Sequence record: PZ402305.1
Origin: a phage
Length of the DNA: 64,000 bases
Direction: 5' to 3' (one strand)
A program made the position numbers and the translations under genes. Each line of letters starts with the position of its first letter. Position 1 is the first letter of the stretch. Shown here one piece after another: positions 1,645 to 64,000 of this stretch. The notes beneath the pieces were generated by a model. The model had not been told where the DNA came from, did not search any database, and worked only from the letters and a program-made list of their open reading frames with translations.

Positions 1645-1837
1645 TTAATGAGGCGGGGGGAGTATTCCCCGCCGTCAATATGGCGGGGCAATAAGGCAAC
1701 GCCCATTAATGAGGGTAAAATCATGTTAGAGAAAATTTTCACGGTTGCAGTGGTTGGCCTGGCGTTATCGGTTGGAGTGGTTGCAACTATGGCTAACATG
1801 ATCCTATCTTCCCACGGTATCGGTTAAGGTGAAACAA

Positions 1838-3427: not shown

Positions 3428-3718
3428 ATGAAAAAGATGATCGCAGTAGTTGCCCTGGTTGTTGGTATTAACGCGCCTGTAATGGCTAATGATTTGCCTG
3501 AATCCATCGCGTTAACCGATATCAACGCGGTAAACCGGATCGGCGTTAATTATCGCCTATGCCTTGCCGCTAAAACTTTCCAGGACGGCACGACAGAATA
3601 CCACGGATTCGAGGGTGTCCGGTGCGGTGAGCTTGCACGCGACCTTAAGGAAGATCCAGACCTTGAGGCCATACCGATGACCGTAAACGGTAAAGCTTAC
3701 GTAAACCGCCAACAATGA
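3428..3718 (+). CDS. hypothetical secreted protein (signal peptide)
   Basis: N-terminus MKKMIAVVALVVGINAPVMA resembles a Sec signal peptide. Confidence 0.5.
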   Translation: MKKMIAVVALVVGINAPVMANDLPESIALTDINAVNRIGVNYRLCLAAKTFQDGTTEYHGFEGVRCGELARDLKEDPDLEAIPMTVNGKAYVNRQQ

Positions 3719-3729
3719 GAAAGGTAATC

Positions 3730-3957
3730 ATGACAATGGGGATCATAGTAGCAACGCTGGCGCTGATCCCCTTCCTGGTTGAATATGTGCTGATTAGTGT
3801 TGTCCTGGTAGTCAGTGACTTATTGGAAACGGTTGGCACCTGGGAGCAGGGGAAGATAATCACCGGACGACCCCGCTATATATTGATAGCTAACATCTAT
3901 CAAACAACAAAACATCAAAGAGATAAACTATCAAATCTTTACAATCCTACCTATTGA
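3730..3957 (+). CDS. hypothetical membrane protein (75 aa)
   Basis: Internal ATG after GAAAGG RBS; two hydrophobic segments. Confidence 0.45.
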   Translation: MTMGIIVATLALIPFLVEYVLISVVLVVSDLLETVGTWEQGKIITGRPRYILIANIYQTTKHQRDKLSNLYNPTY

Positions 3958-10211: not shown

Positions 10212-10526
10212 ATGTCAGAAGAACTTAAAGAATTTTATCAAGCATATCATAACTGGCTGTTAGCTGGTGCTCCAGATAATAATCCTTTCTGGCATGATAA
10301 AGGATTATGTAGTTGCCTCTACCTTTGGACTGGAGGTTATGATGATCTAAATTATGAAATGCAAATGCAATTCCGTGAGGCAGGATTGTCTGAAGAATAC
10401 CCGTTTGATGACGGAGACTGGTTTAAATATGATTTTGCACAAAGAAACGGGCTATTGCATTTGAATGCTGCCCGTATAAAATGGGTAAAAGACCATGCTA
10501 CACAGGAGGATGTGCAATGCCAATAG
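10212..10526 (+). CDS. small Cys-containing protein, paralogous family member 3
   Basis: FYQAYHNWLL, KGLCSCL, AGLSEEYPF, RIKWVKDH. Confidence 0.55.
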   Translation: MSEELKEFYQAYHNWLLAGAPDNNPFWHDKGLCSCLYLWTGGYDDLNYEMQMQFREAGLSEEYPFDDGDWFKYDFAQRNGLLHLNAARIKWVKDHATQEDVQCQ

Positions 10527-11447
10527 TGTTTAGTTTCTTAGTAATTGTTATGGTTGTTCTTTTCGCGGCATGGCTTTGGGATTTTGACCCAGGAGCAGCG
10601 CAGCAAAGAGCTACAGACTGGAAAGAACAATGTATTGTGCTCAAACATGAACGAAATGCGGAGAAATTTCTTGACCTGGAGTGTGATCGCCTTGTAAGAT
10701 ACAAGCAAGATAAATAACCTTGAGGTGCAAAATGGTAATTGAGATTAAACTTGAATATGCTGGGGCTGTTGCTCTGATCGCACAAACGCTTGGAGCAAAG
10801 ATTGAAGAAGTGTATATCAATGCCTGGAGCGTAGAGATTGATGTTCCTATGGACAACATTGCTAATCGCTTGCTGGTGGCAGAGTGTGAACGCACCAACA
10901 TAATCTACAAAGGAGCATAATATGAAAATTAGAGTTTGTGATGTATTGGGTTATGTTGGTTTTGAGAATGTTCAGATTCCTTTTGTTGTTGAAGCACATC
11001 TTGTTAGCGATGACATGACAACATTCTTTGTTACGATAGAAGAAATGTCCAAAGTTGAGGGATGGGAGTGGTTTGAAGAAGATGTTTGGGAAGGTTGTGA
11101 TTACGTATTTTTCTCTGATGAAGTGAATATTCTTGCGGAGTAGGTATGTCTTGTTTTACAAAAGCAGTGTCCATATGTAAGAAACAGTATGAAAGCGATT
11201 ACGGAATATTTAATATTCCAGCAGATCATACGGAGTATTGTTCATGTGGTGGCAGAATGAAGAAAACAGTGATTTATGCGGATAGTGGAGACGAACTTGT
11301 TCCGGTTATGGTTTGCAAAGCTTGTCATTCTGTTAAAACATTAAAAGCGTAAGGAGTCGGGACACCCGACGATTGGAGCTAAAAATTTTGCGTACAACCC
11401 TTTCCGCCCAACAGGGGCGCGTCGGGTAAATAAAGAGGAGAGTTTAT

Positions 11448-14089: not shown

Positions 14090-15979
14090 TGGCTGCTTAT
14101 AATTGGTATGAACTTGAAGCTGTTTGTCAGTTTTATGACTCAATAGTTCTGCGTGATCCAATCTGTCAAGAATTGAGTCGCCGTGCAAGTGCATTGGCAA
14201 TCCGTGTTAAAATAAACGGTTGGAACGCAGATTTGGAAAAAGAGTTGGAATTTCTCTTAGAAAACACGCGGGTCTTCCGCAAAGTGTTCCCTGAATGGTT
14301 TGAGATGGAAGAATGATCATGTGGATTGTGCGTCTTAAGTATGATGGCCCTAATCCTTGGGTGAGAACAGTTTGCGGATGTGATACTAAAGAGTCAGCAG
14401 ATAAAGCTGGAAGAATGATAAGTGCCTTTTATAATAGTAAACCTCTTTGTTTAGAAATGTCTGGTGTGGTTTGTATGAGCATGTTCGAATACTACTCTTA
14501 TGAGATCAAAGAACACCAAGGGGAATGGAAATAAATAGTTGACAGAAGGATCTGTCTTTGTCATAATCATCTCATCGAAACAAAGAGGAGAAAATCATGA
14601 AAAAGTTTATTTGCACCCGTTCCACTAACAGTGATATCCTTGTAGGTAAGGTTATCAAAGGAGAACTCTTCCATGCAAACGGTAAGAAATATATTTTGCT
14701 GAAAGATTCTTTCAACGGGGAATATCCGCGCTGCACTTTCTTCAATTACAACACTCCATTTGCTTTAGAAGGAGATGCTTGGGACTGGGCTGAACTCAAT
14801 CCTTGTTGTGAGGAAGAAGAATCTATGTTCTTGGGTTTAAACGTTTACCGTGTAGATTACACCATGTGCGGAGCGGAACATTCTGTTCGCGTAGAAGCCG
14901 AATCCAAACTACAAGCACCTTTCAAGGCGGGATTGACTTTGGGTCATTGTTTGGCAAACATTGAAGATGTTGTGATCCAAAGGGTTGTTTTAGAGAAAGA
15001 GGCTATTTGAGAGAAGACGGCACAATATTTAAATATAAAGATTAACCACAAAGGAGATAGATATGCAAGTTGAAGACCTGATCAAAATTTTGAATGAAGC
15101 CAAAGAGAAAGGTGCTATCAAAGACTGGAAACGTGAAACAAGTGAAGATCTATCTCACTGTTGCCGAGAATTTTACATCGAAGGTATTGCTGACGATCAT
15201 TATATTATCGAATGGTATATCAACTTAATGACTCTTAAGCACGGTTCGTTTGAGGTTTGGTTTGATGACATTGATGTAAATGGTTTTCATCCTGGCTATA
15301 AAATCGCTATGCAGTTATCTTATCGTAGAGAAGTTGTAGCACATTTAGGTTTACATAACTAAGGAGAAAAGAATGCAAGCAGTTGTTAACGAAGCTATTA
15401 TGAACTTATCCTTCTTGTTAGCTGGTTTAGGAGGTGTTCTCATAGGTTTGGCTCTTATCTGGTGTATTCGTCGATTAATCGGGTACCGACAAAAAGGTGT
15501 TTCATGTTTTGTATCTTACAATTTTACAACTGCTTACAGCAATGAAGTTGGATCTGGCAATGCTCAAGCATTTTTACCAACATATCCTCCTACGGTGGAA
15601 GATATTCGAAACTTGGAAGTAGAACTTATGGGACTAAGTGATAACTATACATCTCTAGTTATTCAAAATATTTTTCGACTAAAACAGGAGGCGTGAATGA
15701 AGGTACATTACCCTCATCCATTTGATCCTAAAAACAAAGCCGTAATTCTTCGTCAGTGGCAACGGGTTTGTCGTACTAAATGTCCAATCAATAGCCCACA
15801 CAATGTAGACAAGGACTATCTTGGGACATTTGTTGAATACACTTACATAGACAAAAACAAGCGTAAACAACATGTCGAGGAATACTGCTTAAGAGTAGAA
15901 TGGCTGTAAATAATAAATACCTTGACAAGTGTTTATTCGTTTTGTAAAGTGAGAATACAGCAATGGTTTAGGAGTGGTT

Positions 15980-19037: not shown

Positions 19038-19457
19038 ATGTTAGGTAAGATCAAAGCTTTTTTCAAACGTATTGTTGAAGGAAGTCCAACAGAAGGTGCA
19101 TTAGGAAGATCTCTAACAGGAGAACCACTTGCCATAATTTCTATCAGTCGGCATGGGGGATATTCCATTCGACAAACACCTTTAGGTATAAAAGGTAGTA
19201 TGCTTTCTTGGACAATATCTCAAGTTGGTGATAACAGACTTGCAGCTATAGCATTGCTTCGTGGGGAGTATGACTATTGTTTATCAGCATCTTGTAAAAA
19301 GCACCTTATAGAGCACATTAAAGACAGAGTAGAAAGAGAAGGCGGATACTTTTTCGAAACTAAGAGAAACGAACAAGGAACTCTTGACTTCACTAAGGTT
19401 TACTGGGACAATCATACTCGTCAAACTGTTGAACAACTTCTGGAGGAAAGATGTTAA
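19038..19457 (+). CDS. hypothetical protein (139 aa)
   Basis: Track ORF, AAGGGGGA RBS. Confidence 0.5.
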   Translation: MLGKIKAFFKRIVEGSPTEGALGRSLTGEPLAIISISRHGGYSIRQTPLGIKGSMLSWTISQVGDNRLAAIALLRGEYDYCLSASCKKHLIEHIKDRVEREGGYFFETKRNEQGTLDFTKVYWDNHTRQTVEQLLEERC

Positions 19458-19953
19458 AAGCTTTTGCTGTATACTCTACTGTAGGATTCTTTTATTGGAT
19501 TATAGTTGTTGTTGGATGTTGGTTGGGTTCTTCTGTTGTGATGGGAGAATGGTTAACATACAATGTATTTGAATGGGATGTAGTTTGTAGATCATTACTT
19601 GTTATATGGACTGCTATTGTTTGTTGGATAACTGTTAGTCTAACATTAGATCTATATTGATTAATAGATGGTAGATAGATGATCATAGTTTATCTACCTT
19701 CACTTACGTTTCATACCTCACTATCGTGAGTAACATGAAACATTATTATATAGAAATCTACTACTCGCTATCGCTCGTAAACATATGTTTAGGGTACCAT
19801 ATTTTTTTGAAAAAGTCAATGCTGACTCACCTATCAATTATCTGTTTAAGATAAGTCTTACCTATCAATCTAACTCTTAACTAGTATTGTACCTATAGTA
19901 AGACTATTCCTATAGTTATTAACCATCTTCTTCTGTAGAATGTAATTAGATCC

Positions 19954-35559: not shown

Positions 35560-36060
35560 TTAGTTGTAAGCATCTAAAGTTCCAGAAGTCAGAACTTTAA
35601 TTACTCGTTCAGCACGGTTTGGCGTCTGGCTATACCATCGGCTTTTACGCATGTTTTTACCTGCTTGAGTATAATATGCATTGCTGATTAAAGTCAAGCT
35701 ATTTTGAAACCCTTCAGCACCTTTTAATCCCAACTGGAAAACCATGTTGATTATTCCCAATTTACGAGTATCACTAACCTTATCATAGATTGGTGATAAG
35801 ATAGCACTGTTTTTTATGTCTCTCTTCACTTTTGCAACATCGTCAGCAAAGATTTGACGGGCTTCTTTTTCTGTGATAACTCCATTAGTCTTACGACCAA
35901 GAAGATTATCTAAGATTTGAATAGCCTTTGCTTTATCTTTTATTTTAGTCAGAAGGTGTCCTATGCCGACTGTCCAATAACCAAGATGGTCTTGATAAAC
36001 AGTAAGCTTCAGTCCTTCATCGACTCGTAGCATATCGAACTCATCTACTACTTTAGCCAT
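35560..36060 (-). CDS. endolysin, T4 lysozyme-like (GH24 muramidase)
   Basis: MLRVDEGLKLTVYQDHLGYWTVGIGH and RWYSQTPNRAERV align with the T4 lysozyme catalytic region. Confidence 0.85.
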   Translation of the reverse strand: MAKVVDEFDMLRVDEGLKLTVYQDHLGYWTVGIGHLLTKIKDKAKAIQILDNLLGRKTNGVITEKEARQIFADDVAKVKRDIKNSAILSPIYDKVSDTRKLGIINMVFQLGLKGAEGFQNSLTLISNAYYTQAGKNMRKSRWYSQTPNRAERVIKVLTSGTLDAYN

Positions 36061-36222: not shown

Positions 36223-36483
36223 TTACTCCGCAATTTGAGCCATGAGATCACGCAGTTCGGTAAAACCGCCTACGTATGTTACCTCCCCGTTCACTTCGGA
36301 CAGAATTTGTGGAAATGTGCGTGGAGGAACTCCGGTAAGATCAACAACTGTTTTAGTCATTGATTCTAAATCATAGTCTTGATCAAGACTTAAATATTCA
36401 AACTGTTTATTGCGCATGGTTAATAGTTGTTTTGACATTTCACAAAATTGACAGTTAGGTTTACCAAAAATTACAAATTCCAT
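36223..36483 (-). CDS. glutaredoxin/thioredoxin-like protein
   Basis: 86 aa with CQFC redox motif; directly precedes rml and nrd genes. Confidence 0.6.
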   Translation of the reverse strand: MEFVIFGKPNCQFCEMSKQLLTMRNKQFEYLSLDQDYDLESMTKTVVDLTGVPPRTFPQILSEVNGEVTYVGGFTELRDLMAQIAE

Positions 36484-37325
36484 TACCTCTCCTTATTAAG
36501 TAATACTGCTAAAGACTGTTCAATACCTTTATTTAAATCTGATTTTGTAAGATAGTGACTGGTTACTAGTTGTGACTTCACCGGACGTGCTGCTGGAGCA
36601 TTATAGGTTGAAGCTGATACCGCCGATATCTTAACAGGTTCTGGCATCTGTGTCAAGATCTTTTCCGCAAACTCCGCCCAAGAAATAAGATGGCTTCCTG
36701 CAAAATGGTAAGTCTTAACAGACCTTGACCAACCTGTTTTTAATACTTCAAAAATAGCTTCTGCTAAATCTGGAGCATATGTTGGACAAGAGAACTGATC
36801 AGCAACAATAATAAAATCACGTTGTCCATCATTATAGCGAGACAACATGGTTTTTAGAAAGTTATTTCCAAATTCGCTATATACCGAGGCTGTTCGAATA
36901 ATATATGCATTTGGGTTAACTCCTCGCACCATTTTTTCACCAAGTTCTTTCGTATACCCATAATTGTTTATTGGGTTAGGTGTAGTATCTTCAAAAATAG
37001 GATGAGAATAATTAAAAATATAGTCTGTAGAAATATGCACAAAATCAATTTTAAGTTTGCTGCACACTGCCGCAATATTTGCAGGTCCATACGCATTAAC
37101 AGCCAAAGCAGTAGCAAAATCATGTTCTGCTTTATCTACAGCCGTATAAGCGGCGCAATTAATAACACCATCTACATAATCTTCAATAATAGCGTTTCGC
37201 ACAGCTTCAAAATTTGTAATATCTACACGTTCTTTAGGATAAATTAAAGATACATTTGAAGGAGCCACTTTACGTAAAGCTTGTCCCAGTTGTCCATTAC
37301 CGCCCAATACCAGATATGTTAGCAT
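36483..37325 (-). CDS. rmlD: dTDP-4-dehydrorhamnose reductase
   Basis: N-terminal VLGGNGQLG Rossmann motif; last gene of the rml set. Confidence 0.75.
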   Translation of the reverse strand: MLTYLVLGGNGQLGQALRKVAPSNVSLIYPKERVDITNFEAVRNAIIEDYVDGVINCAAYTAVDKAEHDFATALAVNAYGPANIAAVCSKLKIDFVHISTDYIFNYSHPIFEDTTPNPINNYGYTKELGEKMVRGVNPNAYIIRTASVYSEFGNNFLKTMLSRYNDGQRDFIIVADQFSCPTYAPDLAEAIFEVLKTGWSRSVKTYHFAGSHLISWAEFAEKILTQMPEPVKISAVSASTYNAPAARPVKSQLVTSHYLTKSDLNKGIEQSLAVLLNKER

Positions 37326-37885
37326 ACACCCTCGCTACGTAACTGTTGAAAAGATTTAGCCATTGCATCTTTTGTTGATAGAATAGGTTTAAAACCTTCG
37401 TCAAAAATCATATCGAAGCCCCAATCGATCCCTATATCAGGATCATCCCAACGTAAACTTTGTTCACTAGAAGGGTCGTATGGAGTTGTGCATTTGTATT
37501 CAAAGATAGCATCCATACTCAAAACTATAAAACCATGAGCCAAACCAGGCGGAAGCCAAAACTGCGTATGGTGTCGTGCACGAAGAACAACACCGTCCCA
37601 AGCACCGTAAGTTGGACTATCTTTACGTAAATCTACAGCGAAATCCAATACTTCCCCACTTACACAACGAACTAGCTTACCTTGCGGGTTATTTGTTTGA
37701 AAGTGCATTCCTCGCAAAACACCGAAGTTTGATTTAGACATGTTATCTTGAACGAAAGTTTGTCTACCAATAATATCTTCGTATTTTTGTTCATTATATG
37801 TTTCTAGAAAGAAACCACGATCATCTTTATAAACGTCTGGTTTGATAATTACCGCACCTTCAATTTTTGTTTTTTCTACTTTCAT
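37319..37885 (-). CDS. rmlC: dTDP-4-dehydrorhamnose 3,5-epimerase
   Basis: [14 protein letters not shown], cupin-like; ATGA overlap with rmlA stop. Confidence 0.8.
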
Positions 37886-38760
37886 TTTCTCTCCGCTAAT
37901 TTGAGTAGGTATTGCCCGTACTCTGTTTTCTTCAGTGAGTTTCCATGATACACCAAAGTCTCTAAAGAAATCCACCCTTTTTTGAAAGCAATTTCTTCCA
38001 GGCACGCAATCTTCAATCCTTGACAGTTCTCAATAGTCTGCACGAATTGACCAGCTTCCATCAGACTGGCGTGTGTTCCTGTGTCAAGCCAAGTAAATCC
38101 TCGTCCGAGAACTTCCACTTGTAACTTCCTGTCTTCTAGGTAGCTGCGATTGATATCAGTGATCTCCAGTTCTCCACGCGCGGAAGGGGTTACTTCTAAT
38201 GCACGTTGAATAACAGAGTTATCATAGAAATACAAACCTGTGACAGCATAATCTGATTTAGGATTTTCAGGTTTCTCTTCAATAGAAATAGCTTGACGAT
38301 TACTCCCAAATTCAACCACACCGAATCGTTCAGGATCTTTCACCAAATACCCGAAAATACAAGCTCCGCCCCAAACATCTACCATCTCACTGGCGTTAAT
38401 CAGTAGTTTACCAAAGCTTTGTCCGAAGAATAGGTTGTCACCTAAAATAAGAGCAACAGAGTCTTCTCCGATAAAATCTTTACCTATGATGAAAGCTTCC
38501 GCAAGACCTCGTGGCTCGGATTGGATTGCGTAAGTGAGTTTTATCCCAAACATAGATCCATCTCCGAGAAGATACTCAAAGTCTTCCTGATCGCCTGGTG
38601 TGGTGATTATTAAAATATCCTTAATGTCAGCCAACATCAATACCGATAAAGGGTAGTAGATCATGGGTTTGTCATACACAGGGAGTAATTGCTTGCTCAC
38701 ACTGCGTGTTACTGGATGAAGGCGGGTTCCACTTCCTCCCGCCAAAATAATACCTTTCAT
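37882..38760 (-). CDS. rmlA: glucose-1-phosphate thymidylyltransferase
   Basis: [18 protein letters not shown]...[16 protein letters not shown]. Confidence 0.9.
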
Positions 38761-51959: not shown

Positions 51960-52204
51960 TATAACTCCTTATTTAAAATAGCTTTCTAGAAAGTTGCTAA
52001 TATTTACTACAGTCTCACCCATGTAAATTCCTGCGAAACCGAAAACAAACATACGTGGAATATTGAAATACCATTTATCCGCCGGAAAAGATGCCAGAAT
52101 TACAATAGCAATTGCTATCAACATCATAAGAATTGTTGCTAAAATTATCATAAAAATGCCTCCAGGTATTTTGCACAATGATAAGCTAAGAACATTTTTC
52201 CTCC

Positions 52205-53332
52205 TTATTCTGCTGGTTCCCAAGTGCCTGGGATCATTTCTCGAATACGAACACCAACAGGTTTTGTTGGAATACCTTCATCTGAAAATTCTTCATACTC
52301 TATTTCAACGAACTGATTAATCAAGGTAGAAGCATTCTCTGCTTTACGATAATTGATAGTCTCATGAGCATCTTTACGCATTAAGAATTCGACTACTTTA
52401 CCATTTTCCATCTCACCTGTCAACACTCCATCGCCATTTTTATCACTTTTTGAATTTATTACTTTAACTTCAAGCGTATGACGAGGCTTACGTTTAATAA
52501 CATCATAAGAACGTTTATCAAATTCGTAAACTCCGTGAGCATTACGATATACTACACCTTCAGCTTTCTCAAGTAAAGCTTTTTCATAGAAAGCATCAAA
52601 CTGTTCTTGGTTTTGAATATACTCTGTATGAACTACACAAATAAGCTCATCAAGACCATAATCCTCCACTACTGCCTTAAGAGCAGTAAGAACATCAACA
52701 CGTTTTTCAAACGGTAGGTCTGGAACTGGAATATCGTATACGTAATAGTTCAGCAAAGGTGTATTTGCATTATGCTTCTTCCAGGCACTGTTAATTTGTT
52801 GTAGACTAAGGACACCTAACCCAGCAAACACTTCACCATCAAGAGGATGACCAACAACTTCACTAATAAAGTTTGGAATACCTTTCCAATGAGGTGGCAG
52901 GTTATACACTTCCCCAGCTTTTGATAAACACTCCCCTTTCATGTTAATCATAGAACGTAACCCGTTCAGTTTGTATTGTGCATAGCCAGGGAACACAACC
53001 CTTTCAGGATAATCTTTATAATCCTGGCATTTCATTGGTGTAGAAGGAACATGGTTTTCAGCTTCTTCTTTTGTTTTATAATAGCCATTCTTTAACTGTT
53101 TTGTCCATTTGGCAAAAGCTTCAAGTTCAGCTTGTTCTTCTGGTGTTGTTTCATTGGAACGACCGATGTTTTTTGCTTCTGCTGTATAAGATTTTTCTGT
53201 GATTTTTCCACCTACCCTTCCATGAGCTACAGTAACAACTGCACCATCTGTATACACTGTCCACTGTTTAAGTTTTCCTTTTGAATCTTTACCATACAGC
53301 GTTTGATTTGTTTGTTGCATTAGTCCTCCCAT
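52205..53332 (-). CDS. ATP-dependent DNA ligase
   Basis: FPGYAQYKLNGLRS (motif I, compare T4 gp30 FPAFAQLKADGAR), LDGEVF, EGVVYRN, VIKRK. Confidence 0.7.
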   Translation of the reverse strand: MGGLMQQTNQTLYGKDSKGKLKQWTVYTDGAVVTVAHGRVGGKITEKSYTAEAKNIGRSNETTPEEQAELEAFAKWTKQLKNGYYKTKEEAENHVPSTPMKCQDYKDYPERVVFPGYAQYKLNGLRSMINMKGECLSKAGEVYNLPPHWKGIPNFISEVVGHPLDGEVFAGLGVLSLQQINSAWKKHNANTPLLNYYVYDIPVPDLPFEKRVDVLTALKAVVEDYGLDELICVVHTEYIQNQEQFDAFYEKALLEKAEGVVYRNAHGVYEFDKRSYDVIKRKPRHTLEVKVINSKSDKNGDGVLTGEMENGKVVEFLMRKDAHETINYRKAENASTLINQFVEIEYEEFSDEGIPTKPVGVRIREMIPGTWEPAE

Positions 53333-58312: not shown

Positions 58313-58792
58313 TTACTACCTCCATACGATCTAAAAAGTCATTCACAAATCTCCAGTAACGTTGACCTGTTCTAAGATCTTCATAGATAACCACAGGATC
58401 AAACACTTTAGATATTCCGGCAGGTTTTGGAAATTCCACTACTGTATATAAACCACCTTTTGCTACACAAGAATAGGTTACGCCTGTAATTGGATAGTTG
58501 CTCATTTCTTTACGTACTCCATGATTGGGGTATGGTCGCCAGTAAGCGTAACACGGCTGTAGGACACATCTTGTGTCTTCAATGTATCAATCCACTCTAA
58601 GAAGTGTTCTTTCGCTTCTGTGTAGTTCTGTGTGCCTTTAACAACGTGTATACCATCTAATGTTACACGGAATACCATTTGAATAACGTCTTTCATTTCT
58701 TACCTCCTTTGTTGTCAAAGTAGCTTACCAGAACATCGTGAACCACACACATGGCTAAAATCAGAACAATTGTTGCCAGGATTGGGTTCTCA

Positions 58793-59116
58793 CTAATTAG
58801 TGCTATCATCTTTAACCACCTCCAATTGCCTTTCGAGTTTGACTTTGTTTGAGAACTGATAATGACACAACTTACATTGCATGTCAACAATCTGATCGTG
58901 ATTTAACCCTACAATTTTAACTTCCTTTGCACCATCCCACTCCAAATACTCAAAGTCATCCAAATGATTACTCTTGTCCAACAAGAATGCTATCTGCTGC
59001 CATTCGATCTGAATGTCATTTAAATGATATGCTGCACAGAAGATATCTTCATAGTAAAAGACGATCATTGTCATTGCTTCGTCCAGTACAACTACCTCTT
59101 GTCTTGTAAATCTCAT
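58793..59116 (-). CDS. hypothetical protein, first gene of the minus-strand train
   Basis: AGGAGG RBS; upstream is the divergent control region. Confidence 0.5.
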   Translation of the reverse strand: MRFTRQEVVVLDEAMTMIVFYYEDIFCAAYHLNDIQIEWQQIAFLLDKSNHLDDFEYLEWDGAKEVKIVGLNHDQIVDMQCKLCHYQFSNKVKLERQLEVVKDDSTN

Positions 59117-60574: not shown

Positions 60575-60646
60575 TGGCCCTGTAGCTCAATGGGAGAGCT
60601 GTCGGCTCATAACCGATAGGTAGCTGGATCGAAACCAGCCAGGGCC
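60575..60646 (+). tRNA. tRNA with CAT anticodon, tRNA-Ile2 (lysidine)-like
   Basis: Acceptor GGCCCTG/CAGGGCC, loop CTCATAA, encoded CCA; resembles bacterial tRNA-Ile2. Confidence 0.7.
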
Positions 60647-60651
60647 ACCAA

Positions 60652-60723
60652 CGTCTTTATGGTGTAATGGATAGCACAGGAGTCTTCTAAACTCTTAGTC
60701 AAGGTTCGATTCCTTGTAAAGAC
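60652..60723 (+). tRNA. tRNA-Arg (TCT)
   Basis: Acceptor GTCTTTA/TAAAGAC, loop CTTCTAA, T-loop TTCGATT, CCA. Confidence 0.7.
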
Positions 60724-60775
60724 ACCAGAACATTTTAACATGAATTAGCTCAAGTGATTTGAACCCACTACTGAT

Positions 60776-60896
60776 CATGGTGGCAGAGAATGAGGCAAGT
60801 ATGTCAGACATTATAAACAAAGGCCACGGTTATATTAGAAGACATAAATGCTCGAAGAGCACCGTTCGTGGAGAACGGGGGTTGGTGGAGTCACCA
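60776..60896 (+). ncRNA. second candidate structured RNA (about 120 nt)
   Basis: ATGGTGGC at about 60776 pairs with GTCACCAT at about 60889; track ORF 60759..60950 here is probably spurious. Confidence 0.3.
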
Positions 60897-60961
60897 TTCA
60901 TGGTAAAATGTTTTAAAAAACTATTGACAACAAACCTTATTTTATGTTAGATTATAAGTAT

Positions 60962-61049
60962 GGAAGGGCAAATCGACGTGGCGACGAAAACGGTCTTGAA
61001 AACCGCCGAGCTTGAAAGAGCCTTGGGAGTTCGACTCTCCCTCCTTCCG
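60962..61049 (+). tRNA. tRNA-Ser (TGA), type II
   Basis: Acceptor GGAAGGG/TCCTTCC, loop CTTGAAA, long variable arm, T-arm GGGAG-TTCGACT-CTCCC, G73, CCA. Confidence 0.7.
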
Positions 61050-61056
61050 CCAGATT

Positions 61057-61139
61057 GGTAGATTGGTGAAATGGTAGCCACGACAGTTTGCTAAACTGTA
61101 GTCGGAAACGGCGTGTAGGTTCGAGTCCTACATCTACCG
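61057..61139 (+). tRNA. tRNA-Ser (GCT), type II
   Basis: Acceptor GGTAGAT/ATCTACC, loop TTGCTAA, long variable arm, G73, CCA. Confidence 0.75.
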
Positions 61140-61273
61140 CCAAGTTCTTTTTAATATAGCTTACTTTAATAGAGTAAACTTTCGGCAGATGGCCCCCCAC
61201 CATCTTACCGATAACTCATAGTTAGTGGTGTGAACACTGGCTATCTTAAAAAGAATTTAAATATTAGTATTTA

Positions 61274-61358
61274 GGTGAGTTAATTCCGTAGGGGTAGCGG
61301 GGCAGACTGTAAATCTGTTATCATTGCGATTCGGGTGGTTCGACTCCATCACTCACCA
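61274..61358 (+). tRNA. tRNA-Tyr (GTA), type II
   Basis: GGTGAGT...GCAGACTGTAAATCTGT...ACTCACCACCA; close to the bacterial tRNA-Tyr pattern. Confidence 0.8.
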
Positions 61359-61367
61359 CCAAATTAA

Positions 61368-61450
61368 GATGAGTTGGCTGAATGGTTTAAGCGGCGGACT
61401 GTTAATCCGTGTTCGAAAGAACGATATAGGTTCAAATCCTATACTCATCG
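61368..61450 (+). tRNA. type II (Ser-like, G73) tRNA whose canonical fold gives anticodon GTT (Asn)
   Basis: Acceptor GATGAGT/ACTCATC, 3-bp D-stem, loop CTGTTAA between GCGGA/TCCGT, GNRA-capped variable arm. Confidence 0.45.
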
Positions 61451-61532
61451 CCAGAATTATGGACTTGTAGAGTTAAGGTAAACCCCCAGTCGCCAAGAGG
61501 CTTCTGGAATTGCAGGTATCGAATCCTGCCGA

Positions 61533-61604
61533 GTCCCAGCTTTGCTCCTATAGTATAATGGCTATTACAACGGTTTTGTAATCCGTGGATCTCTGTTCGA
61601 TTCA
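61533..61604 (+). tRNA. tRNA-Thr (TGT)
   Basis: Acceptor GCTCCTA/TGGGAGC, loop TTTGTAA, T-arm CTCTG-TTCGATT-CAGAG, CCA. Confidence 0.7.
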
Positions 61605-61931
61605 GAGTGGGAGCACCAACACAACATTAAGGGCACTGTGATTGATCGTCGTATCCTGTGCACAAGGTCTGTTCGAAAGACAGTGTTCTTAGTATTGTGT
61701 TGATCACAAAAAGAGTCACCTGAAACTTGACCGGAGTAGGGTTGGATGGGGTAAAAGAAGAAGCGGCTCTCCCATCGACAGCAACGAAGAATAATATTTG
61801 ACTTTGGTTTTGTATTATTTTAAGTTAGCTTACCGAACGTAGGGCTAGTCACCCAAAGGGATACTCGTCACTGTCCCACTCAATAAAACTATTGACAACC
61901 AATAGTAAAGTGTAGTATAGTAAAGATGTAG

Positions 61932-62002
61932 GGCGTTCTTGGTGTAGCGGTAGCATTCCGTCCTTCCAAGTCGGCGGCACGAGTTCGATCCTCGTAGAAC
62001 GC
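61932..62002 (+). tRNA. tRNA-Gly (TCC)
   Basis: Acceptor GCGTTCT/AGAACGC, loop CTTCCAA, T-arm ACGAG-TTCGATC-CTCGT; D-arm weak. Confidence 0.55.
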
Positions 62003-62103
62003 TCCAAATTATTTAATAAAGGGTTGCCAGAAAACTTTCTCTTTTACTCATGGTTTTCTCCTTCTCTCACACCTCTTCTGGTTGCCCTTCATTAAATGAT
62101 TTA

Positions 62104-62176
62104 TTGGTTTGTAGTGTAGTTAGGTAGCACACGACACTTTGACTGTCGTAGGTTTGGTTCAAATCCAGACAGACCA
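62104..62176 (+). tRNA. tRNA-Gln (TTG)
   Basis: U1:A72 and G73 (Gln identity), stem CGACA/TGTCG with loop CTTTGAC, CCA. Confidence 0.7.
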
Positions 62177-62184
62177 GCCATATA

Positions 62185-62258
62185 ACGGAATTTAGCTCAG
62201 TTTGGTAGAGTGTACGCTTTGGGAGCGTATTGTCGCAGGTTCGAATCCTGCAATTCCG
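62185..62258 (+). tRNA. tRNA-Pro (TGG)
   Basis: Acceptor CGGAATT/AATTCCG, loop TTTGGGA, T-arm GCAGG-TTCGAAT-CCTGC, A73, CCA. Confidence 0.75.
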
Positions 62259-62267
62259 ACCAATTAA

Positions 62268-62338
62268 ATGTTTCGTAGTTCAATGGTAGAACCCACGACT
62301 GATAATCGTGAGACACAAGTTCGATTCTTGTCGAAACA
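62268..62338 (+). tRNA. tRNA-Ile (GAT)
   Basis: Stem CACGA/TCGTG with loop CTGATAA; T-arm ACAAG-TTCGATT-CTTGT; CCA. Confidence 0.65.
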
Positions 62339-62419
62339 ACCAGTTTCCCGTTAGACTTACAGGATAAGAGTTCCACAGCTTATTGTGATGCTGGTTCGAA
62401 TCCAGCACGGGATACCTAA

Positions 62420-62495
62420 TAGCGGGATAGAGGAGTCTGGTCGTCCTCGCCAGTTTCATATGCTGGAGATCATTGGTTCAAATCCAATTCCCGCC
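62420..62495 (+). tRNA. tRNA-Met (CAT), initiator or elongator undetermined
   Basis: D-stem GAGG/CCTC, stem CCAGT/GCTGG with loop TTCATAT, T-arm ATTGG-TTCAAAT-CCAAT, 1:72 mismatch, CCA. Confidence 0.5.
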
Positions 62496-62613
62496 TCCAA
62501 ATATCGCTTGCCAGCGGTATCTTTGAAGACCTTGCCTGGTTCCTTCTAAGATGGAGGGGTGCGACTCCTTAACGCACAATTATAATAAAGCATTTCAAAT
62601 TAACAGTATTTAT

Positions 62614-62637
62614 TAGCCTCCTTATTGGAGGCTTTTT
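62614..62637 (+). terminator. rho-independent terminator closing the tRNA cluster
   Basis: AGCCTCC-ttatt-GGAGGCT followed by TTTTT. Confidence 0.7.
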
Positions 62638-62706
62638 GCTATCTATTGAATAAAACTTGACTTATTATTTTTTATATGTTAAGATAAAGTTTAGGAGGAT
62701 TTTATT

Positions 62707-63003
62707 ATGCCTAAACTAAAACGTGGTCGTGGAAGACCAACAGCCGAAATGCAACAGATTTACGCAATGGATGCGGCGCAAGCAAGTGTAAAAGAATTAT
62801 TTGCAGAGCATTATTTAGAAGCTATGCGGTATATTGTTGAACTTGTTAATGATAAGGATGCAGCAAAACCTCTCCGCTTCCAAGCAGCTAAAGCTATTAA
62901 AGAGCAAGTAGAAGAATGGTTAGAAGAACATTATGAAGCTATGGAAGAAGAAACCCCTGCCGTGCAGAATACAGATGACGTTCCTAAAAAGATCGTAATC
63001 TAA
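62707..63003 (+). CDS. hypothetical protein with AT-hook-like KRGRGRP
   Basis: AGGAGG RBS; extended -10 promoter at about 62657-62685; terminator hairpins at about 63019-63086. Confidence 0.5.
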   Translation: MPKLKRGRGRPTAEMQQIYAMDAAQASVKELFAEHYLEAMRYIVELVNDKDAAKPLRFQAAKAIKEQVEEWLEEHYEAMEEETPAVQNTDDVPKKIVI

Positions 63004-63363
63004 TCCCTCTCCTCTCTTGGGGCTTTGCCCCTCCTCCTTGTTATTTTTAACACCCCTCTCCGAAAGGTTAGGGGCTTTTTATTTTTAATGCTTGCAATTG
63101 TATATCATTTTATGATAAGATCAGATATGAGGAGGATAAAATATGCGCAATTTTGTAGTTAAAAATGATTTTAACCGTTCTTCTTATCATAAAGATAAAA
63201 AGAATGATTACACACGGGCTTGGAACTTGGAGGAAGAACTTTATGATGACAGAGAAGACTTGGGAAGAGATCCTAGCGGAGGCTCAACCAATGGAAGTGA
63301 AGAAGATAGTTAACAACGCCCCTTCTCTTCCTAAAATAAAATTTTATGAGGAAGTAGAAGATA

Positions 63364-63756
63364 ATGAATCTAAAGACTAAAACTGTATTAAGTTTTGTTT
63401 TAATTGTTGTTCTTATTCTTGCCGGAATGTTTGCTTATAACAAGATACGTGAGTCTGGCTACAAAGATGGTGTTGCCTATCAAACGCAAGTATATCAAGC
63501 AGCCCAAGCAAAAGCAAAACAAGATTTCGATGTTCTTCAAAAAAGAGCGGATGAAGAAAGAGCATTATTAAATACTCAAATAAACAATTTATCTAAAAAC
63601 AATGCACAATTAAAAGCAGATTTAGAGAAGAAGAAACAAACGATCAATGAGGATACAACGAATTATGCAAAAACTAATTCTGGCAGTATGTCTTGCTTTG
63701 CCCCTAATGATGACGGGTTGTTCATCATCAACAAAAGTTTCCCCAGTTCTTATTGA
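63364..63756 (+). CDS. i-spanin (Rz-like): N-terminal TM helix plus coiled-coil
   Basis: VLSFVLIVVLILAGMFAY then heptad-rich periplasmic region; the o-spanin gene is embedded at its 3' end. Confidence 0.5.
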   Translation: MNLKTKTVLSFVLIVVLILAGMFAYNKIRESGYKDGVAYQTQVYQAAQAKAKQDFDVLQKRADEERALLNTQINNLSKNNAQLKADLEKKKQTINEDTTNYAKTNSGSMSCFAPNDDGLFIINKSFPSSY

Positions 63757-63991
63757 TGAGTGTAAGGCTGTAGCCATAGAAAAGGTTAAAGGTCCAGATT
63801 CGGACTTGATGGATAAAGTATCGACACCTGTGCCATACACTAAAAATCAAATTGCAAAAGGGGTTAGTAGATCTGAAGTTGTTAACAACCAAACTCAAAA
63901 CAATGCTCTTTGGGAGCAAGATAGACGAAAGGTTCTAGGTTTACAAACATATATTAAAACACTGCAAGAAAAAGGTATTATTGCTGAATAA
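63665..63991 (+). CDS. o-spanin (Rz1-like outer-membrane lipoprotein), overlapped architecture
   Basis: MQKLILAVCLALPLMMTGC lipobox; begins inside the i-spanin gene in another frame; track start 63647. Confidence 0.45.
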   Translation: MQKLILAVCLALPLMMTGCSSSTKVSPVLIDECKAVAIEKVKGPDSDLMDKVSTPVPYTKNQIAKGVSRSEVVNNQTQNNALWEQDRRKVLGLQTYIKTLQEKGIIAE

Positions 63992-64000
63992 GGAGGGAAT

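Follow-up and report, generated by a model that had tools for sequence, protein, structure and literature searches.

A predicted overlapped two-component spanin of a phAPEC8-like coliphage, encoded next to the large terminase gene

The two genes at 63364–63991 of the window, that is, the whole 64,000-nucleotide stretch of phage DNA analyzed here, very probably encode the two-component overlapped spanin of a phAPEC8-like coliphage. This assignment rests on the architecture of the gene pair, the targeting signals of its products and their profile similarity. The first gene would encode the inner-membrane subunit (i-spanin) and the second the lipoprotein of the outer membrane (o-spanin). Coordinates of the genes and their surroundings are collected in Table 1.

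The DNA at 62600–64000 is 99.2–99.6% identical to its 20 best-matching phages, including phAPEC8, SF1-1, ESCO37 and nieznany. These are E. coli phages of the genus Phapecoctavirus, subfamily Stephanstirmvirinae. Some host labels among the records look doubtful, such as 'Acinetobacter phage vB_AbaM_ABPW7' with 99.2% identical DNA and several entries named 'Campylobacter phage' (e.g. A145) with a coliphage-type spanin locus.

The feature is already known and ordinary, since the pair was catalogued in the spanin database in 2018. In that survey (Kongari et al. 2018; PMC6139136), gp121 of phAPEC8 is an i-spanin with exactly the same 130-aa sequence as ours. Its partner is a 114-aa o-spanin, the class is 'ovl' with a 110-bp overlap, and the pair is placed in a two-member family of phi92 and phAPEC8. 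The o-spanin of the window is 100% identical to the phAPEC8 protein and 66–67% identical to those of phi92-like phages, and both subunits fall in this phAPEC8/phi92 family by their matches to PHROG 4297 and PHROG 1267. The names i-spanin and o-spanin are used in curated records, e.g. those of EmilieFrey, SF1-1 and ESCO5, and 'hypothetical protein' in many others.

Table 1. Features of the spanin locus and of its surroundings in the window
Feature	Position	Strand	Remarks
Soluble GH24 lysozyme, T4 E-like (predicted)	35560–36060	−	PF00959 Phage_lysozyme, E 6.6e-11
tRNA array, ten genes (Met, Arg, Ser, Asn, Thr, Gly, Gln, Pro, Ile, second Met-CAT)	60576–62499	+	directly upstream of the late operon
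ORF for a 98-aa acidic protein	62707–63003	+	basic N-terminus MPKLKRGRGRP...; PHROG 3330 (unknown function)
Rho-independent terminator (predicted)	63053–63085	+	hairpin CCCCU..AGGGG, then U run; −23.7 kcal/mol, z −2.5
Conserved small hydrophilic ORF, 56 aa	63143–63313	+	between terminator and i-spanin gene; annotated CDS in relatives
i-spanin gene (predicted)	63364–63756	+	130 aa; PHROG match, TM segment, AF2 helix, conservation in four relatives
Shine-Dalgarno-like GAGGA	63649–63653	+	11 nt 5′ of ATG 63665, within i-spanin coding sequence; read from sequence
o-spanin gene (predicted)	63665–63991	+	+1 frame relative to i-spanin; 108-aa precursor, 90-aa mature lipoprotein; PHROG match, conservation
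Signal peptidase II signal sequence (predicted)	63665–63721	+	lipobox L-M-M-T-G↓C at nt 63704–63721, pattern match
Doubly coded overlap	63665–63756	+	92 nt (110 nt from ATG 63647)
Ribosome-binding site GGAGGG of the large terminase subunit gene	63992–63997	+	directly after o-spanin stop; gene starts just past window end

We applied the two-component spanin criteria of Summer 2007 and Kongari 2018. The first gene has an unambiguous start, since no other start codon lies between 63364 and the preceding in-frame stop. Residues 7–25 of the product (the VLSFVLIVVLILAGMFAYN region; nt 63382–63438) are strongly hydrophobic with a 19-residue Kyte-Doolittle mean of 2.57. The AlphaFold2 (AF2) model from the single sequence is one continuous helix of residues 3–104, with a mean pLDDT of 82 and values above 85 for residues 11–100. 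For the phAPEC8 i-spanin, one coiled-coil segment at residues 42–106 is given in Table S1 of PMC6139136. The protein has the layout of an i-spanin, i.e., an N-terminal transmembrane (TM) domain followed by a largely helical or coiled-coil domain predicted to be periplasmic. Moreover, its full length is matched by PHROG 4297 'Rz-like spanin' (E 3.4e-35, residues 1–128), and four further spanin PHROGs match it weakly.

The tail of the i-spanin, residues 105–130, is conserved but poorly ordered in the AF2 model. It contains the single conserved cysteine of the protein, Cys111, and the conserved motif YAKT-SG-MSCF-PNDDGL-IINKSFP encoded by the overlap. Being both conserved and overlap-encoded, the tail is a reasonable candidate for the o-spanin contact site, although such a role is speculation.

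The second gene lies in a +1-frame ORF that is open from 63626, stops at 63989–63991 and has ATG codons at 63647, 63665, 63707 and 63710. From ATG 63665 its product reads MQKLILAVCLALPLMMTG↓CSSSTK. The n-region is short and basic, a hydrophobic core follows, and the lipobox matches the PROSITE PS51257-type pattern. The predicted acylated residue is Cys19 (63719–63721), and the +2 and +3 residues are both Ser, so no Asp signal for inner-membrane retention is present. This combination of a lipobox Cys and no Asp at +2, characteristic of o-spanins, is found at the pattern level and is conserved in four relatives.

The o-spanin matches PHROG 1267 'Rz-like spanin' with an E of 8.7e-21 over residues 7–113. 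Its AF2 model, predicted alone, is of low confidence with a mean pLDDT of 61. A C-terminal helix of residues 69–102 stands out with block-mean pLDDT of about 68–88, the remainder being of low confidence. The one invariant periplasmic Cys of the o-spanin is Cys33 in the precursor numbering. Across the six frames of the 64-kb window, only three lipoboxes of the PS51257 type stand near a start codon, the o-spanin included. The other two do not look lipoprotein-like; one belongs to a protein with two TM segments, and in the other the would-be signal contains acidic residues.

The lipoprotein matched 136 phage records by tblastn, and every matched record checked for taxonomy belongs to the Stephanstirmvirinae. 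Four diverged loci were compared with the window: those of phiWec190 (L003), Klebsiella phage phi1_175008 (L004), EmilieFrey (L005), which is a phi92-like Justusliebigvirus and a BASEL phage, and Klebsiella phage KP13-16 (L006). Their identity to the window ranges from 54 down to 33% for the i-spanin and from 73 down to 38% for the o-spanin. The N-terminal hydrophobic segment of the first protein is present in all four, and an overlap of 80–95 nt with the +1 offset is kept in all five loci. The lipoboxes of the relatives are LMMTG↓C, LMITG↓C or LMVSG↓C, followed at +2 by S, T, A or N and never by D. Thus, the same two-gene architecture is found in Phapecoctavirus, Justusliebigvirus and the Klebsiella relatives.

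Nucleotide comparison with the three closer relatives bears on the two reading frames. The doubly coded stretch is 82–88% identical to the window, the highest of the locus, against 56–69% for the two single-frame stretches that lie outside the TM segment. Substitutions are in excess at the wobble positions of the i frame upstream of the overlap and of the o frame downstream. Because the overlap identity is the highest and the wobble bias switches frame, both frames are under protein-coding selection. When the local 3 kb was put through 2000 simple shuffles, 80 of them had a stop-free run of at least 122 codons. Such runs are not very rare, so it is conservation and signals, and not the length of the ORF, that make the case for the second frame. 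As judged from these, the two-frame arrangement is more than chance.

Two-component spanin genes are classed as embedded, with Rz1 of lambda wholly within Rz, as overlapped, with lysB/lysC of P2, or as separated, with those of T4 (PMC6139136). The overlapped class is the commonest and accounts for 228 of the 528 two-component systems in that survey. In the window, the o-spanin gene begins within the i-spanin gene, in a different frame, and continues beyond the latter's stop for 235 nt (63756 to 63991), so the pair is overlapped and not embedded in the lambda manner. The 92-nt overlap likewise sets it apart from the separated genes of the T4 PseT.3/PseT.2 type. Frame 0 of the overlap encodes the C-terminal tail of the i-spanin, and frame +1 the signal peptide and first 12 mature residues of the o-spanin.

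The genes are adjacent, with the i-spanin before the o-spanin, in a phage of a Gram-negative host, as expected of a two-component spanin. A unimolecular spanin was rejected because the two proteins are separate and the lipoprotein has no C-terminal TM domain. As a side observation, the distance from the i-spanin stop to the o-spanin stop is exactly 235 nt at each of the five loci despite differing lengths of the overlap and the proteins. This constant spacing is probably a coincidence of compensating indels.

A preliminary description of this DNA had proposed an overlapping spanin pair at 63364–63991, and both ORFs are there with matches to PHROG spanin families. Its reading of the first protein as a TM plus coiled-coil protein agrees with the hydrophobic segment, the AF2 helix and the reported coiled coil. 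The lipobox, for which it suggested a check of the signal peptidase II site, holds up as a PS51257-type pattern with Cys19 and Ser at +2, kept in the four relatives. It also had the lipoprotein gene embedded out of frame in the 3′ end of the first gene; the different frame and the lipobox stand, but the gene is not embedded and extends past the stop. The lambda Rz/Rz1 architecture that it named gives way to the overlapped one of P2 lysB/lysC.

By sequence families, the pair stands apart from the classical spanins. A Pfam scan of both proteins with E up to 0.1 gave no Rz or Rz1 family and only weak coiled-coil noise. The P2 LysB family TIGR03495 (NCBIfam) scored 16.6 bits (E 0.007) against a cut-off of 92.75, and PDB sequence searches with the spanin proteins gave nothing meaningful (E > 0.4), so no solved relative was found by sequence. 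In the GenBank record SKA64, a feature in the spanin region is named 'LysB family'. The pair is, by its predicted features, a system that works like those of lambda and P2, yet it is not a sequence member of the Rz/Rz1 or LysB families. Our search of the literature found no experimental test of lysis function for members of the phAPEC8/phi92 spanin family.

As inferred from the gene layout, the spanin pair apparently leads the late morphogenesis operon. In the relatives, the gene for the large terminase subunit (terL) starts 9–10 nt after the o-spanin stop, and genes for the portal, scaffold and capsid come next. Between the spanins and terL, the plus strand showed no terminator-like site. Phapecoctavirus, Justusliebigvirus and one Klebsiella relative share the position before terL; in KP13-16 the pair is followed by tRNA genes and not by terL.

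Upstream of the pair, the predicted terminator is annotated at the same place in phage ASO2A. The 56-aa ORF behind it has no Pfam match. It is missing from the window ORFs that showed a hydrophobic segment and is therefore not a holin. A scan for sigma-70 promoters over 62500–64000 gave 5 sites versus 4.9 in shuffled controls, a count not above the controls, and thus we claim no promoter there. The ORF for the 98-aa acidic protein lies between the tRNA array and the spanin–terminase operon, flanked by terminator-like hairpins at 62615–62633 and 63053–63085. A feature called 'RNA polymerase sigma factor' in the SKA64 record falls within the 1.4-kb region 62600–64000 and is possibly this ORF.

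The lysozyme gene lies on the strand opposite to the spanins, at a distance of 27.3 kb (36060 to 63364). Its product, which reads DEG...YQD...WTVGIGH, carries a DEG...D...T motif like that of T4 lysozyme, and its N-terminus lacks a membrane or signal segment. Its neighbors are a PhoH-like gene and a glutaredoxin gene. Near the lysozyme and the glutaredoxin, three minus-strand ORFs at 36483–38760 look by eye like enzymes of a dTDP-sugar pathway, with an RmlA-like N-terminus, an RmlC-type epimerase and an RmlD-type reductase.

For holins, all window ORFs of 45–260 aa were scanned by Kyte-Doolittle hydrophobicity, and most of the plausible small membrane or secreted proteins were compared with PHROG and Pfam. 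None was recognized in the window as a holin; the PHROG matches were all of 'unknown function' and there was no Pfam match. Neither the first 50 kb of the curated EmilieFrey record nor 49 kb of SF1-1 outside the window has a holin annotation. Predicted small membrane proteins, each having either one hydrophobic segment or two, are encoded at 51969–52223 (−), 19451–19660 (+), 3715–3957 (+), 10481–10717 (+), 15373–15696 (+), 58693–58890 (−) and 1648–1827 (+). The first three of these look like having two TM segments, with a core of 60 aa for 51969–52223, and are the natural holin or antiholin candidates.

The endolysin that the preliminary description placed at 35560–36060 on the opposite strand is thus confirmed by its PF00959 match, as are the spacing of 27 kb and the failure to recognize a holin in the window. 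The oddity that it implied in this layout is a known trait of the supergroup. For rV5, no holin homologue was found and a putative holin was described as separated from the lysin 'as in phage T4' (PMC3606486), and BME3 has the same dispersed lysis layout plus two endolysins (PMC12210895). Because of these reports, a distant endolysin and an unseen holin are not unusual for the group. The use of T4 as the comparator was off target as well, the window being more than 99% identical to phAPEC8-like phages. For a Phapecoctavirus, departure from the separated genes of T4 is no surprise.

Where the o-spanin starts is annotated in conflicting ways. The spanin database uses the equivalent of ATG 63647, which gives 114 aa (63647–63991), and most GenBank records use the equivalent of ATG 63707. 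A working signal peptide would be possible from 63647 or 63665 but not from 63707. ATG 63665 is the only start common to all five diverged loci, and conservation favors it as the o-spanin start with the 92-nt overlap. The practical gain of the comparison is correct annotation, as in most GenBank records of the genus the two genes are both labeled 'hypothetical' or else the o-spanin begins at MMTGC and loses its signal peptide. Beyond that, a textbook overlapped two-component spanin matters little.

The start at 63707 leads to one alternative, in which only the i-spanin is real in the overlap, the second gene encodes a soluble protein without a signal peptide, and the 'lipobox' is a by-product of the other frame. 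The start is indeed called there (MMTGC...) in SF1-1, iGC_PHA_EC001, ASO2A and EmilieFrey. However, the 14 codons upstream are open and conserved in all five loci, each from an ATG, as a typical signal peptide with K/R at positions 2–3 and a hydrophobic core. A purine-rich Shine-Dalgarno-like motif precedes ATG 63665 in the window, and GAGG or GAGA stands roughly 9–11 nt 5′ of the start in three relatives (L003–L005); only a weak GATGAGA does so in L006, the most divergent. Moreover, gene callers systematically truncate or miss the starts of overlapped o-spanins, with 64 wrong and 196 missed in the survey (PMC6139136). This alternative has the slimmest chance of all that we considered.

Marginally less improbable, though still very unlikely, is that the pair modifies the envelope and does not serve lysis, as a lipoprotein for superinfection exclusion or receptor masking of the T5 Llp or Cor type with an overlapping membrane partner. 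It would suit genes that are unlinked to a holin or endolysin, have no Pfam spanin match and encode a 90-aa mature lipoprotein with a helical C-terminal part unlike lambda Rz1. But both proteins match profile families made of spanins, and the strict pairing, the gene order and the +1 overlap, kept across genera, are spanin hallmarks. The head of a late structural operon fits late lysis rather than early exclusion, and the 2018 survey accepted the pair by its spanin criteria (PMC6139136). The overlapped spanin thus stays by far the most probable reading.

If the pair is a spanin, it would act as follows. The i-spanin would be inserted in the inner membrane via its N-terminal helix, N-in and C-out, with the long helix reaching into the periplasm. 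The o-spanin would be translated from its own ribosome-binding site inside the i-spanin gene in the +1 frame, exported, lipid-modified on Cys19 and cleaved by signal peptidase II. It would then be sorted to the outer membrane, because its +2 residue is Ser and not Asp. The two spanins would bind through their periplasmic ends to form a bridge across the periplasm, and homodimers may be disulfide-linked via i-Cys111 and o-Cys33 as in lambda. When the endolysin has destroyed the restraining peptidoglycan mesh, the complexes would fuse the inner and outer membranes to complete lysis.

The spanins would be made late, given that their genes head the late operon, with a terminator on the upstream side and the large terminase gene immediately downstream. 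We infer this timing, the topology, the complex formation, the disulfide dimers and the membrane fusion from lambda and general spanin knowledge. Dimensionally, the periplasmic helix of the i-spanin has about 78 residues and would be about 115 Å long if fully helical at 1.5 Å per residue. Together with the 26-residue tail and the 90-residue o-spanin, it would be ample to bridge the periplasm.

Another hydrolase is found in a relative. Shigella phage SF1-1, which is 99.6% identical to the window over 62600–64000, encodes outside the window-covered region a 173-aa SleB-like peptidoglycan hydrolase (PF07486, E 1.9e-17) at L009 30945–31466 (PQ571307.1 109944–110465). Its N-terminus is a signal-like hydrophobic sequence, MLIKNFVTVALLSLTAFTFTPVVAKA, and the protein may be an exported endolysin. 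No obvious membrane segment is seen in the three small ORFs that follow. Because SF1-1 carries this second hydrolase, the lysozyme of the window is perhaps not the only, or even the main, endolysin. An exported endolysin would change the view of holin dependence in the group.

A broader scheme, which we regard as rather unlikely, is that the Stephanstirmvirinae lyse without a canonical holin–endolysin cassette. The spanins would be made as the leader of the terminase/head late operon and freed by the exported SleB-like hydrolase, not by the cytoplasmic T4-type lysozyme, and the timing of lysis would be triggered by something that is not a known holin. The periplasmic bridge, with a single long helix in the i-spanin and a large helical o-spanin, could also differ in geometry from the hairpin model of lambda Rz.

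Compared with lambda Rz/Rz1, the pair likewise combines a type II inner-membrane helical protein and an outer-membrane lipoprotein from two frames of the same DNA, as predicted here, and each subunit has a periplasmic Cys available for disulfide-linked dimers. Rz of lambda has two helical domains joined by a linker, whereas the AF2 model of the i-spanin here is one continuous helix. Mature Rz1 is a short proline-rich peptide of about 40 residues, whereas the o-spanin here has 90 residues in its mature form and is predicted to be partly helical. Moreover, Rz1 is wholly embedded in Rz, and the o-spanin of the window overruns the i-spanin stop.

As to T4, it is likewise a large virulent myovirus whose spanin genes, PseT.3/PseT.2, are unlinked to those for the endolysin and holin, and the endolysin of the window is of the T4 E type. 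However, the T4 genes are non-overlapping ('separated'; PMC6139136) and the window phage is not a T4 relative. The P2 LysB/LysC pair is closer in gene layout, with an o-spanin gene that begins, in a different frame, within the 3′ part of the i-spanin gene and extends past it (PMC6139136). The subunits correspond as well, the i-spanin having an N-terminal TM domain and a helical periplasmic domain and the o-spanin being a lipoprotein. P2 and the window pair differ in that they have no significant sequence relationship, and the P2 genes lie in a lysis cassette with the holin and endolysin (PMC6139136), whereas those of the window are 27 kb from the lysozyme and adjoin terL.

The phAPEC8/phi92 family is the nearest of all, with the same overlapped class, +1 frame and position upstream of terL. 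Its database entry starts the o-spanin at the upstream ATG, for 114 aa and a 110-bp overlap, whereas we place the start at 63665 for 108 aa and a 92-nt overlap. Otherwise, the two differ in nothing of substance.
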